Virus record (IMG/VR): IMGVR_UViG_2778261418_000025
Location: 1 to 7,327 of that record
DNA from: a virus
Lineage: Duplodnaviria > Heunggongvirae > Uroviricota > Caudoviricetes
Length of the DNA: 7,327 nt
Direction: 5' to 3' (one strand)
Shown here: one piece after another, positions 1-7,327 of the stretch
How the letters are laid out: every line of letters begins with the position of its first letter
Position numbering within the stretch: the first letter of the stretch is position 1
Notes under the pieces: generated by a model
What the model saw: only the letters and a program-made list of their open reading frames with translations
What the model was told of the DNA's origin: nothing
Database searches by the model: none
Made by a program: the position numbers and the translations under genes

Positions 1-333
1 TTACTGGCAGGCTTTTTGTCCAATGTAGTATGCAATTGAGCGGTCAACTATAGGGGCCATATTTGGATCTGGTGCTGAGTTATTCATCTGCTCGATGGTC
101 TCACCGTCTCCAAGATATTTAACTGTCCCGGCAGTACAGTCGTACAGCCGCTTTGAATATGATGTTCCAGACGGCCCCTTTCTTTCAGTTGTTATAGTAG
201 CCATGCTGCCGTCGCGAGTCTTATCTAAAATCGTGTAACTAGCCTTCGTATCTGTTGGCACATAAACAACCTCAGCCGCAAACACATTAAATGAAACTGC
301 TGCCCCTACAGCTAATATAATGAAATTTTTCAT
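1..333 (-). CDS. Small secreted protein of unknown function (about 110 aa precursor with N-terminal signal peptide); cargo/moron candidate downstream of tfa
   Basis: ATG at 333..331 with AGGA about 8 nt upstream; the track ORF 1..393 starts at TTG (393) and is probably over-extended. Product begins MKNFIILAVGAAVSFNVFAAEVV (basic residue, hydrophobic core, AxA-like site, no lipobox Cys). Two Cys in the mature part. Stop codon at 1..3. Region looks AT-richer than the rest by eye. Confidence 0.55.
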   Translation of the reverse strand: MKNFIILAVGAAVSFNVFAAEVVYVPTDTKASYTILDKTRDGSMATITTERKGPSGTSYSKRLYDCTAGTVKYLGDGETIEQMNNSAPDPNMAPIVDRSIAYYIGQKACQ

Positions 334-370
334 ATCCCTATTCCTATCATTTGAGTATGCAATAATCCTA

Positions 371-925
371 TCAAGGAACTGAGAAAACGACAAAACCCGC
401 GTTTTGCGGGCTGTCTGGAATGGTCAGGCAATGATGTTCTGGTACTTGCTCCGGGTCTGCCATGTCTAAATCAACGGCATCCTGCAATGTGGCAATGGCG
501 TCATTGGCCTGTTTAAGCAGGCTTTTCTTTTCGGCGTCTGCCTCGCTGACTAATACAATTCGCATGGCCTCCGCATCATCCACCCACGCCTTACCATTCC
601 ATTTTTGCCAGGCATTAGCCGGTGCTAACGTGGTTGTCCCTTCCGGGTAAACACCTGGCTCGGTGATCACCAGTTCATTACCGTTTTCTGTATCAAACAC
701 CACCTCACCACGATGATCCTCACGGGAAATCCATCTTTGCTTCTCTGAATCAAAAATTGCCACAAACCCCACTTTGATTACCGGTGGTTTTATTGTTGTG
801 CAGTTGGCTGGCAGTCCAGTATGCGCAGGAATAAAAGCATCACCTGAACCAATAAATTCATTCGTGTCGGAACGCAGGTTATAAACAGTAACTGTTTGAT
901 CGGTTTCACTCATTTTAAAAGTCAT
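371..925 (-). CDS. tfa: Tail fibre assembly protein (Tfa chaperone), 184 aa
   Basis: ATG at 925..923. N-terminus [48 protein letters not shown] closely matches the lambda Tfa N-terminus as I recall it (MAFRMSE...[20 protein letters not shown]). Its ATG overlaps the stop of the upstream fibre ORF (TAATG). Confidence 0.85.
   Translation of the reverse strand: MTFKMSETDQTVTVYNLRSDTNEFIGSGDAFIPAHTGLPANCTTIKPPVIKVGFVAIFDSEKQRWISREDHRGEVVFDTENGNELVITEPGVYPEGTTTLAPANAWQKWNGKAWVDDAEAMRIVLVSEADAEKKSLLKQANDAIATLQDAVDLDMADPEQVPEHHCLTIPDSPQNAGFVVFSVP
381..410 (-). terminator. Possible weak intrinsic terminator inside the last codons of tfa
   Basis: On the minus strand: CCCGC-AAAAC-GCGGG hairpin (plus 396-410) followed by TTTTGTCGTTTTCTC. 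Stem is only 5 bp and the element lies within coding sequence. Confidence 0.25.
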
Positions 926-3204: not shown

Positions 3205-3428
3205 GCCGCACCGCCTTTGCTGCAAATCGCCGCGGCTTCTTCGCGGATCAACTCAACGATTTCCGTTGCGCTTAAACCTTCATTGGCTGCATGGGTGGCC
3301 AGCTTATTCAGACGGGTGGAACACAAATCAGCAGCAGCGGCTTTACCTTCCTGCGTGGCTTTGGTGAGCATTGCCAGCAGGTCAGTGACTGATTTTGTTG
3401 CGGGTAAATCCTGACGTGTCATATGCAT
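3195..3428 (-). CDS. Hypothetical Ala-rich 77-aa protein, translationally coupled to dam
   Basis: ATG at 3428 with AAGGA 7 nt upstream. Its stop overlaps the dam start by 10 nt (ATGGCAATAA). No recognisable motif. Confidence 0.5.
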   Translation of the reverse strand: MHMTRQDLPATKSVTDLLAMLTKATQEGKAAAADLCSTRLNKLATHAANEGLSATEIVELIREEAAAICSKGGAAWQ

Positions 3429-3495
3429 TTTGGTTTCCTTAAGGCAAAAGAATCCCCGGCCACTTGAAACATGGCCAAAAAATTCAGGCGGTTAA

Positions 3496-3897
3496 TTAGT
3501 GAAAAGTGGGGTGTACTGTGGCAGCTGAGTAGTTCGGTACCGGAATCAGGTGCAGTTCATAGGTTGTCCGCCACCACTCCTGGATCAGTGCATTTATCTC
3601 GCCAACTCCCAGCGCCCCGGCTGTATAGAAAATCGCACGAATCCCCGCCAGCGCTTCTATCTGGGCTTCTTTGCTTTCCGCTTCGCGATACACGCAGCAC
3701 CAGAAAGCGGCATTGATCGCCAGCCAGTGACGCGGATTCGTCATGTGCTCGGTGTCATTGAAGAAGAACGGATGCAAAGCGATGCGGCCATTTTTACTGG
3801 TGCTTTTCTCTGTAAACACTACAGCGTAGTTATGCGGGACACCCCACACAGCCAGTTCAGCCCCCAACGATTTACCCTCAACGGAAATAATGGTCAT
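3496..3897 (-). CDS. Hypothetical early-operon protein, 133 aa
   Basis: ATG at 3897..3895 overlaps the stop of the upstream ORF (TAATG). Coding-like codon usage. No recognisable motif. Confidence 0.55.
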   Translation of the reverse strand: MTIISVEGKSLGAELAVWGVPHNYAVVFTEKSTSKNGRIALHPFFFNDTEHMTNPRHWLAINAAFWCCVYREAESKEAQIEALAGIRAIFYTAGALGVGEINALIQEWWRTTYELHLIPVPNYSAATVHPTFH

Positions 3898-4325
3898 TAG
3901 TGATTCCCCTGTTGCTGGAACTTATGGACGATATGAGGTGCAATCACCATCTGTACCCCACTACTGCTATAAATTGGATGTGCCTTTTTGATCGGGCGGT
4001 TCGCGGTGCGCTTTGAAAAATCGCTGTCACGTAAACTGCCGAAACCTTCAAACGTTAACCGCGCCCGTGAAATGCCCTGGCGCAGTTGAATCATGTCCCG
4101 ATAGCCCAGGCGTTCATAAATCTCACGCCAGCAACATTTGCTTAAGTGGGCTTTAAATGCCCCGGAACCAGAAGTAACCGCAGCAGCATGAAGCACCACG
4201 CCGCGCCACTCCGGTGTTAAGTTGTCCCACCATTCAGCGGCCTCGCTGCTTTCGTTGAAGTATTTGCGGCGGATCTGTTTTAAATGCTCCAGCCCGCGCT
4301 TTTGCTGTTCCTGGCTAATCGCCAT
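3897..4325 (-). CDS. Hypothetical early-operon protein, about 142 aa from ATG 4325 (track gives 207 aa from a GTG at 4520)
   Basis: ATG at 4325..4323 preceded by GGGGG 4 nt upstream. The 65 codons upstream in the same frame contain several rare codons (AGG, AGA x2, ATA, GGG) and overlap a better-looking 57-aa ORF in another frame, so the long GTG-initiated model is probably an over-extension. Confidence 0.5.
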   Translation of the reverse strand: MAISQEQQKRGLEHLKQIRRKYFNESSEAAEWWDNLTPEWRGVVLHAAAVTSGSGAFKAHLSKCCWREIYERLGYRDMIQLRQGISRARLTFEGFGSLRDSDFSKRTANRPIKKAHPIYSSSGVQMVIAPHIVHKFQQQGNH

Positions 4326-4333
4326 AACGCCCC

Positions 4334-4507
4334 CTATAGTCCCATCAGACGACGCCACCACGGGCGGCGCGGCTGCTGGCCATTGAATTTGTACATGTGG
4401 CCAGGGTTCCAGCGCTGACCGTTTGGCAGTTCTATCCAGCCCGTTGAACCACTCGGCAACTGCATGGCTGGTGATTCTTTTTTCAGGTAAGTGACAAACG
4501 CTTTCAT
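4334..4507 (-). CDS. Small hypothetical protein, 57 aa (MKAFVTYLKKESPAMQLPSGSTGWIELPNGQRWNPGHMYKFNGQQPRRPWWRRLMGL), not in the supplied ORF track
   Basis: ATG at 4507..4505 with GAGGGA 6 nt upstream, 9 nt after the cII stop. Codon usage is typical (CTG, CCG, CGC, CGT, CAG, GGC). Stop TAG at 4336..4334 overlaps the SD of the next gene. Confidence 0.5.
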   Translation of the reverse strand: MKAFVTYLKKESPAMQLPSGSTGWIELPNGQRWNPGHMYKFNGQQPRRPWWRRLMGL

Positions 4508-4516
4508 GGTGTTCCC

Positions 4517-5020
4517 TCACATCAGGCCGGTGGCGTTGGTTGTGACCAGCTCCACCGCCGCAGCCAGAACAGGCGCAGAGTGAATACGGCTTTCAACGGT
4601 ATAAGCCAGCACGGATAAGCTACGGATTGCATCGCGGGCACGATCCAGAATTTGAGTACGGCGGGCGGCAGTCATATAGCCAGTTGATACGGCTTCCCCA
4701 GCAATCGCGCCCACACTGGCTGTGGCACTCAGTGCGCACAACTGCATGTTGCCTTCTGTGGCATTGTTCACCGGCACGGATGGAAGGCAGTTAATCTGAC
4801 CTAACATCCCATCAAGCAAACGCGCATCTTCGGTGTAATCCGTGATAGCCAAAAGCTCATCACAGGTCAGGCGGTGCGGTTGTGCTGGGTTCAGTTTGTT
4901 GCGCAGGATCTGCGGCCTCATACCAACGGCAGCGGCCACATCTTCAAGATTGTGCTCAATTGCAAATGCTCGGCAAGCCGCATCAAAGTGCGCATGTTTA
5001 GAGGTCTGGTAATCAAACAT
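4517..5020 (-). CDS. cII: CII-like transcriptional activator of lysogeny (phage 186 CII family), 167 aa
   Basis: MFDYQTSKHAHFDAACRAFAIEHN...GMRPQILRNKLNPAQPHRLTCDELLAITDYTEDARLLDGMLGQINCLP matches my recollection of 186 CII (MFDFQVSKHPHYDEACRAFA...GMRPQVLRNKLNPEQPH...). ATG at 5020 with GGGAGAGG 6 nt upstream. Confidence 0.8.
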   Translation of the reverse strand: MFDYQTSKHAHFDAACRAFAIEHNLEDVAAAVGMRPQILRNKLNPAQPHRLTCDELLAITDYTEDARLLDGMLGQINCLPSVPVNNATEGNMQLCALSATASVGAIAGEAVSTGYMTAARRTQILDRARDAIRSLSVLAYTVESRIHSAPVLAAAVELVTTNATGLM

Positions 5021-5050
5021 TGTTTGCCTCTCCCGAATCCGTAGGATGGA

Positions 5051-5272
5051 TTACGCGTTAAGCGAAATGTCACATTCGCTTAAAGCCTGAATAGTGAGCG
5101 CGGCCATGTTGACTTCGACCAAGCCTTTCTTCTGCTTACCCTTCGGCTTAATAGGTAATTTCCCGTATTCGATCAGGTTCCTGGCGGTTTCTTTGTTGGT
5201 ACCAGTACGGCGGCAATACTCGTCTAAAGGCAGGTATGGCTCAGGGATGATGATTGTAATGTTCGGACGCAT
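5051..5272 (-). CDS. apl: Apl/Cox-like small DNA-binding protein (excision directionality and lytic-switch regulator), 73 aa from ATG 5272
   Basis: First gene of the leftward operon facing cI, the position of 186 apl / P2 cox. Small and basic (MRPNITIIIPEPYLPLDEYCRRTGTNKETARNLIEYGKLPIKPKGKQKKGLVEV...). ATG 5272 has GGAG 8 nt upstream; the track start at 5305 is a TTG. Assignment is by synteny and size, not recognised sequence. Confidence 0.5.
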   Translation of the reverse strand: MRPNITIIIPEPYLPLDEYCRRTGTNKETARNLIEYGKLPIKPKGKQKKGLVEVNMAALTIQALSECDISLNA

Positions 5273-5343
5273 GAGGCAAACTCCACAAGTTAACCTGTAC
5301 GGCAATACAGGGTTATATAAGGCAACATTCGAAATATGGAGCC

Positions 5344-5372
5344 AGATTAATTCGCGTTTCGAGAAGTGTCAA
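5344..5372 (-). promoter_or_regulatory. Candidate lytic promoter (pR-like) for the apl-cII operon
   Basis: Minus strand: -35 TTGACA (plus 5372..5367), 17-bp spacer, -10 TAATCT (plus 5349..5344), about 65 nt upstream of the apl ATG. The -10 is a weak match, so the exact hexamer is uncertain. Confidence 0.45.
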
Positions 5373-5393
5373 TTTTAATTTCTCGAATCGAGA
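5357..5393. promoter_or_regulatory. Candidate operator: inverted repeats bracketing the -35 element
   Basis: TTCGAGAA (5358-5365) and its exact reverse complement TTCTCGAA (5380-5387) flank the -35, with a second palindrome TCTCGA-a-TCGAGA at 5381-5393. Three TCGAGA-type hexamers lie within 36 bp. Confidence 0.4.
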
Positions 5394-5407
5394 CTTATGG
5401 ATTCGCT

Positions 5408-5989
5408 ATGAGCACATTTAAAATCGACCTAAACGTAGATAGCACACCGATTCTTGACAGGGTGATCGAGGCTTACGGATTTACGCAGAAGTTACAGCTC
5501 GCGGAACATCTGGACATGGCAGCCAGTTCTCTTTCTTCACGCTACAAGCGTGGAGTTTTCCCGGCAGACATTGTCGTGAAATGTGTAGCCGAAACAGGCG
5601 CTAATCTGGAGTGGCTGGCGACAGGACAGGGACGTAAATTTAATGATGATGAATTAGACATACTCAAAATACCGCGCAGCAAGATTGTTGATGGCCAACT
5701 CTATGACGCTGGCACACTTATGCTTGATAAAGTCATCTTCCTGCCTGGTAAGCCCTTACCGCAACAACCGATTTGTGTTCTGGATGGCCTTGTTCAGTAC
5801 ATTGTTGACCAGTCTTATTCTGAAGTTTATGACGATGATTGGTTGGTTGAAGTTGAAGGAAAAACAAGCGTCCGCACTCTTACACGGATTCCGGTACGAA
5901 AAGTCAGAGTTAGCGGTGTTGGTATGGCATTTGATTGCGGAATTGACGACATAAAAATCATAGGCCGCGTTGTTCTGACGATAAAATAA
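5408..5989 (+). CDS. cI: CI-like immunity repressor (phage 186 CI family), 193 aa from ATG 5408
   Basis: MSTFKIDLNVDSTPILDRVIEAYGFTQKLQLAEHLDMAASSLSSRYKRGVFPADIVVKCVAETGANLEWLATGQG matches my recollection of 186 CI (VLDRICEAYGFSQKIQLANHFDIASSSLSNRYTRG...ETGANLQWLLTGEG). C-terminus ...FDCGIDDIKIIGRVV also parallels 186 CI. The track start at 5366 is a GTG with no SD. Confidence 0.85.
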   Translation: MSTFKIDLNVDSTPILDRVIEAYGFTQKLQLAEHLDMAASSLSSRYKRGVFPADIVVKCVAETGANLEWLATGQGRKFNDDELDILKIPRSKIVDGQLYDAGTLMLDKVIFLPGKPLPQQPICVLDGLVQYIVDQSYSEVYDDDWLVEVEGKTSVRTLTRIPVRKVRVSGVGMAFDCGIDDIKIIGRVVLTIK

Positions 5990-7198: not shown

Positions 7199-7327
7199 AT
7201 GAATGAGTTCAAGAGGTGTATGCGCGTGTTTAGTCATTCTCCCTTTAAAGTACGGTTAATGCTGCTCTCTATGTTGTGCGATATGGTCAACAACAAACCG
7301 CAGCAAGATAAACCTTCCGATAAATAG
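7199..7327 (+). CDS. Small ORF, 42 aa (MNEFKRCMRVFSHSPFKVRLMLLSMLCDMVNNKPQQDKPSDK), unknown function
   Basis: Consensus SD AGGAGG (7189-7194) 4 nt before the ATG at 7199; stop TAG at 7325-7327. Too short to appear in the ORF track. May lie outside the prophage. Confidence 0.4.
   Translation: MNEFKRCMRVFSHSPFKVRLMLLSMLCDMVNNKPQQDKPSDK

Follow-up and report, generated by a model that had tools for sequence, protein, structure and literature searches.

The 57-codon open reading frame (ORF) that directly follows cII in a 186-like (Peduoviridae) prophage most probably is fil, read from its own Shine-Dalgarno (SD) sequence, with the next gene, orf142, starting at ATG 4325 and the 207-aa ORF that spans both being an artefact. 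We put the probability of this reading at roughly 0.93. The window, i.e. the whole 7,327-nt stretch of viral DNA analysed, contains the following features.

1..393, minus strand: 130-aa ORF, present in place of the tail-fibre assembly gene's 3' end
3481..3453, minus strand: terminator-like hairpin (11 bp, then a T-run) between orf133 and the DUF2732 gene, called by a consensus scan only
3496..3897, minus strand: orf133, a conserved hypothetical early protein of 133 aa (phrog_3935 at 8.3e-52)
3897..4325, minus strand: orf142, a conserved hypothetical early protein of 142 aa, start ATG 4325
3897..4520, minus strand: mechanical 207-aa ORF, consisting of orf142 plus 65 out-of-frame codons read over fil
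4334-4330, minus strand: SD of orf142, the G-run GGGGG, whose first G is the last G of the fil TAG; 4 nt to ATG 4325-4323
4334..4507, minus strand: fil homologue, 57 codons, 57-aa product MKAFVTYLKKESPAMQLPSGSTGWIELPNGQRWNPGHMYKFNGQQPRRPWWRRLMGL, stop TAG 4336-4334
4518-4513, minus strand: fil SD GAGGGA, overlapping the cII stop; 5 nt to ATG 4507-4505
4517..5020, minus strand: cII, 167 aa (PF06892 Phage_CP76, 158 bits), stop TGA 4519-4517; the lysogeny-establishment activator of a 186-like phage, named 'phage regulatory CII family protein' in RefSeq

The genes are tightly packed in the order cII-fil-orf142-orf133, with spacers read from the sequence of 9 nt between cII and fil and 8 nt between fil and orf142, while the orf133 ATG and the orf142 stop share a TAATG overlap. 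A sequence-only reading of this DNA had described an ATG at 4507 behind a GAGGGA SD, a 57-codon ORF after cII, a stop of that ORF overlapping the SD of the ATG at 4325, and a packed cII-orf57-orf142 arrangement; all of these elements are present, the TAG at 4336-4334 running directly into the G-run. A sigma-70 promoter scan of positions 3300-5500 found none, as expected for genes internal to an operon driven from pR further upstream.

Taken alone, a 57-codon ORF is not unusual, since the window holds 80 ORFs of at least 30 aa. The decisive evidence for the gene is comparative. The window was compared with ten related E. coli prophage or phage loci of 85-100% DNA identity, and dN/dS and the count of variable fil columns were derived from the eight sequences that carry the 174-nt form of fil (the window and seven loci). 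Within these eight, 27 of the 34 variable columns are third codon positions in the fil frame (binomial P = 5e-8). The pooled Nei-Gojobori dN/dS is 0.03 in the fil frame, compared to 2.1 and 4.1 in the other two, the value of 4.1 belonging to the 207-aa frame. Third positions account for 23 of 31 variable sites in the first 42 codons, the part held in common with 75-aa forms of the protein, and the corresponding figures are 91 of 118 for cII and 96 of 152 for orf142 in its own frame. The GAGG core of the fil SD is kept in 10 of 10 homologous loci, with a 1-nt spacer indel in one of them (L004). Purifying selection, a conserved SD and start, and membership of a Pfam family (see below) thus support the 57-codon ORF as a real gene, as the sequence-only reading had thought probable.

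The 57-aa protein scores 40.1 bits with PF10893 (Phage_186_Fil), above the gathering cut-off of 25 (E = 3e-10), and its residues 1-37 align on profile positions 1-34 of 56. The best PHROG match is phrog_7623, labelled 'unknown function' (4.5e-30); phrog_816 'cell division inhibitor', the family of 186 Fil, is matched at 3.3e-8. In BLASTP the protein shares 39% identity with 186 Fil over 33 aa (E = 6e-7). The homology search that had been proposed for the 57-aa peptide therefore leads to PF10893 and to the founding member of the family. All 77 clustered database homologues carry PF10893, many of them named Fil or DUF2724. Six residues (G23, W24, G30, R32, W33 and P35, within GWIELPNGQRWNP) are invariant in the family alignment, 186 Fil included, and the conserved N-terminal part of about 35-40 residues is characterised by the motif GW-x5-G-x-RW-x-P. 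Beyond this core, Fil tails comprise 15 to 33 residues with a median net charge of +5 and about 36% hydrophobic residues; the tail in the window, PRRPWWRRLMGL, is basic and hydrophobic. Every related locus has the gene order apl-cII-fil. The profile match, similarity to the founder, synteny and coding constraint all point to membership of PF10893, and no other division-inhibitor family was named for the protein in the Pfam and PHROG scans.

A profile search of PDB sequences for a solved relative returned nothing below E = 0.37. The AlphaFold2 model of Fil, built on a 63-sequence alignment, is of low confidence (pLDDT 62.7, pTM 0.23) and shows a short hairpin at residues 25-33 only.

Like 186 Fil (NP_052282.1; PF10893, formerly DUF2724), the window protein is a small product of the early lytic operon whose gene comes immediately after cII, and the two N-terminal cores share 39% identity, including the invariant G, W, G, R, W and P. 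The two differ in length (75 aa in 186, 57 aa in the window) and in the spacer after the cII stop, which is about 7-8 nt in 186 and 9 nt in the window. The C-terminal third is unrelated, with a short Arg/Trp-rich tail in the window as opposed to a hydrophobic GFLIIRIVHFVI-type tail in 186 Fil. The gene after fil is dhr in 186, whereas orf142 and orf133 follow in the window. Escherichia phage ESSI2_ev015 (Quadragintavirus) encodes a Fil-family product 100% identical to that of the window in the same gene order. In Yersinia phage vB_YenM_324, gp06 ('cell division inhibitor') shows 49% full-length identity, an RRxWW...LMGL tail shared with the window protein, and again the same gene order. The Quadragintavirus ev129 and ev040 forms, in contrast to the 57-aa protein of the window, are 75 aa long, have another tail and overlap the orf142 start by 11 nt.

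Fil length is polymorphic, at 57, 60-66 or 75 aa. The differences trace back to small indels and base substitutions near the G-run where fil meets orf142 (window 4326-4345; loci L004-L012). The 75-aa fil of two loci (L010 and L012) reads past the orf142 ATG and stops 7 nt inside orf142. Most 64-66-aa forms end in GRYG[DH], which suggests the same read-through into orf142, and a fusion fragment of Fil and orf142 exists as database entry P0073.

The window is a deletion-riddled remnant of a 186-like prophage, with mntS adjoining at 7199..7327. Relative to the intact prophage found in E. coli CM2010-0578/1, the window lacks 774 bp near 2581-2586, where a truncated dam (231 aa) is fused to the interior of replication gene A; what remains of gene A matches Pfam GPA positions 69-320 only. 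At 1448-1452 the interior of gene A is joined to a tail-fibre gene via a 5-bp overlap, about 16.5 kb having been deleted, and the window diverges from the intact prophage again near 454. A 37-mer across the gene A/tail-fibre junction has no exact match among GTDB species representatives, and the same set of deletions and junction was found in no complete E. coli genome among the megablast matches listed (ten best of 40 records). Across int-cI-apl-cII-fil-orf142 the window and the intact phage are 100% identical, hence fil in the window is not decayed. The cI reading frame is likewise intact, with both Pfam CI-repressor domains matched; as the prophage is defective and cI is intact, fil is presumably repressed in the present host. 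Rfam gathering and tRNA scans of the window were both empty.

At the mntS locus, two other E. coli genomes (L017 and L019) have remnants of the same prophage that are truncated in other ways. Both keep int-cI-apl-cII-fil-orf142, and beyond it L017 continues into the flanking genes on that side of the prophage. What outlasts decay of this prophage is the immunity and early block. At the other end of the window, the leftmost 453 bases lie outside all listed megablast alignments to complete E. coli genomes (ten best of 40 records). The 130-aa ORF located there has no Pfam or PADLOC family, and its N-terminus, KNFIILAVGAAVSFNVFA, looks by eye like a signal peptide. PADLOC also gave no defence-system match for fil, orf142 or orf133.

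In this reading, the rightward early lytic transcript carries fil as its second cistron after apl, with translation from an SD of its own that overlaps the cII stop. By inference from phage 186, once CI repression is lifted, Fil would be made early and block host cell division, such that the cells grow into filaments. The N-terminal core of about 40 residues containing GW-x5-G-x-RW-x-P is the likely functional part; we speculate that the core binds the target, with the tail aiding membrane or partner association. In the 186 record, fil is annotated with 'overexpression blocks cell division'. A 186 fil-lacZ translational fusion works as a reporter of pR (PMC7708051), which indicates that the 186 fil start is translated; a full-text literature search for the mechanism or host target of 186 Fil found neither, yielding only this lacZ fusion. 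Several short proteins, encoded by prophages or made early in infection, halt cytokinesis of the host, namely lambda Kil, Qin DicB, T7 Gp0.4 and e14 YmfM (cf. PMC6206680); they fall in the same functional class as Fil by analogy only, not by membership. The sequence-only reading had suggested a host-targeting effector at this position, a call that is correct by homology because the gene is a fil homologue.

By analogy with 186, Fil of the window probably inhibits host cell division. An activity identical to that of 186 Fil is likely rather than certain, given that only 34 of 56 profile positions align and the C-terminal tail is unrelated. It is rather unlikely, if less so than any other alternative considered here, that the protein is a genuine Fil member without division inhibition, which acts on another host process or is an inert relic in a decayed prophage. 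This would be in keeping with a core of only ~35 residues in common with 186 Fil, a best PHROG of 'unknown function' (phrog_7623) instead of phrog_816, unrelated tails of 15 to 33 aa, and a prophage that lacks replication and morphogenesis genes. Against it stand the presence in 186 Fil of all six invariant residues (G23 through P35), the operon position common to both genes, the strong purifying selection over the subfamily, and the identity of the window copy to fil of intact prophages, which argues that it is not decayed. Less probable again is that the 57-aa subfamily uses an undescribed mode of division inhibition or another host target, with retention in remnants reflecting co-option by the host. 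A different mode or target is conceivable because only the ~35-residue GW...G-RW-P core is kept alongside a distinct Arg/Trp-rich tail. Co-option, rather than chance, could account for fil having been kept at the mntS locus in several remnants that decayed independently of one another (the window, L017 and L019).

The GTG start of the overlapping 207-aa ORF is composed of the G that ends the final ATG codon of cII and the TG that begins its TGA stop, and inspection of the sequence reveals no SD ahead of GTG 4520. The long frame is cut by stops in 8 of 10 homologous loci: in six the stop lies 3 codons upstream of the orf142 ATG, and in two more the frame is open for 167 codons only. It is open through fil (231 codons, no stop) solely in the lineage of the window itself, i.e. 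the window, L001 and L002, and the closest relatives, at 94-96% identity, already contain stops. Both spacers show 1-nt indels (GAGGGAACACC vs GAGGAACACC in one, a G-run of 5 to 8 G in the other); between genes these would be harmless, but no continuous 207-aa frame could survive them. The G-run at the fil/orf142 boundary is found in all homologues, and its variation in length implies that it is non-coding in the long frame. The phrog_33841 profile (6.8e-39) begins to align at residue 12 of the 142-aa protein (residue 77 of the long form), and in Pfam and PHROG scans no family profile covers the first 65 residues of the 207-aa ORF. Full-length orf142 homologues in the database are mostly 141-146 aa, with none near 207. 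The dN/dS values, the stops in 8 of 10 loci and the spacer indels identify the 207-aa ORF as a longest-ORF artefact, with orf142 starting at ATG 4325. The suspicion of the sequence-only reading that the long ORF is a chimera was therefore well founded; conservation of the long frame across homologues, which it had named as evidence to the contrary, was looked for, and the frame is not conserved.

Codon usage mildly favours the same reading. The first 65 codons of the 207-aa ORF include 11 rare codons (AGG x1, AGA x2, ATA x1, GGG x3, CGG, CCC x2 and TCG), whereas those of the 57-aa frame are only ATA, GGA and CTA. The codon count agrees with the earlier observation of a GTG start without SD and of AGG, two AGA, ATA and GGG codons in the long ORF. 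Scoring of both frames, as had been proposed, gave a log-odds per codon of 0.24 for the short and 0.03 for the long frame relative to the other genes of the window.

The stop-free stretch in the window, L001 and L002 could also be taken to mean that both frames are used in this lineage, with fil overlapped by an N-terminally extended isoform of orf142. This is very improbable, as the overlap shows no constraint on the long frame (substitutions act only as third-position changes of fil), stops are present even in the relatives at 94-96% identity, and the GTG is not preceded by an SD. That 3897..4520 encodes a real 207-aa protein and the 57-aa ORF is a chance frame within it, for which the 231 open codons over the fil region of those three sequences could be cited, has been refuted by the comparative data and can be practically dismissed, in view of the stops in eight related loci, the dN/dS of 4.1 over the fil overlap, a GTG start without SD followed by 11 rare codons in 65, frame-shifting 1-nt spacer indels, 65 initial residues devoid of any family profile, and homologues that are mostly 141-146 aa and never near 207.

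A second longest-ORF over-extension is present in the same window: for cI (5366-5989, plus strand) the mechanical ORF is likewise 207 aa from a GTG, while the RefSeq start is at 5408, giving 193 aa.

Together, orf142 and orf133 occupy the position of dhr in 186. No Pfam or NCBIfam family was found for orf142. Its identification as 186 Dhr was rejected, BLASTP giving no alignment at E <= 100 and the PHROG families being different (phrog_33841 vs phrog_6069). Homology to P2 gpB was not detectable (BLASTP E = 1.1; hhalign probability 0.65%, E = 0.089). The orf142 homologue of Yersinia phage vB_YenM_324 (L014 1407-1781; 30% identity) is annotated as 'replication protein GpB', and both this homologue and P2 gpB weakly match phrog_14551 and phrog_5349, a weak transitive link; the Yersinia label may reflect over-transfer of an annotation or, alternatively, a very distant homology. 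The AlphaFold2 model of orf142 (pLDDT 64) consists of a helical domain at residues 1-93 followed by a disordered tail. A Foldseek search against BFVD returned nothing with E below 1, and the search of PDB sequences was negative. The hairpin at 3481..3453 corresponds in position to tR1 of 186, which lies between the host-takeover genes and the DUF2732 gene, and to the putative terminator after gene B in P2.

In public data the 57-codon gene is already known and is routinely annotated as fil. The identical DNA in E. coli CM2010-0578/1 carries the RefSeq/PGAP entry WP_000643373.1 ('phage filamentation protein Fil family protein'), followed by orf142 as WP_040080386.1, starting at the same ATG 4325, and by orf133 as a hypothetical protein. 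The record of Escherichia phage ESSI2_ev015 contains the same two CDSs, fil and orf142, and in identical as well as related loci the annotation comprises a Fil gene of 174 or 228 nt and then a 429-nt gene. A public assembly collection indexes exactly this 57-aa sequence in 1848 blocks, where it is a called gene in 6 of the 6 places listed. The description of the gene as unannotated in the sequence-only reading hence holds for the ORF track that it was given but not for public data, where WP_000643373.1 is the same ORF. The 57-codon finding is right but ordinary, as this is a named Fil gene that public annotation calls correctly. There is no new biology in it, given that the family already has a name, RefSeq lists the identical protein under an accession and the gene is called by standard pipelines. 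The main value is one of quality control: the longest-ORF track swallowed a small gene and gave orf142 a false N-terminus of 65 residues.

The same mis-call persists in at least one public record, that of Cronobacter phage ESSI-2 (NC_047854). Just after cII, this phage has a Fil homologue of 63% identity behind a GGGGA SD (L013 1201-1380), which is without a CDS in the RefSeq record and is thus genuinely unannotated. Over the next 0.8 kb (about 1415-2173), the CDSs annotated in ESSI-2 overlap one another and lie on both strands.
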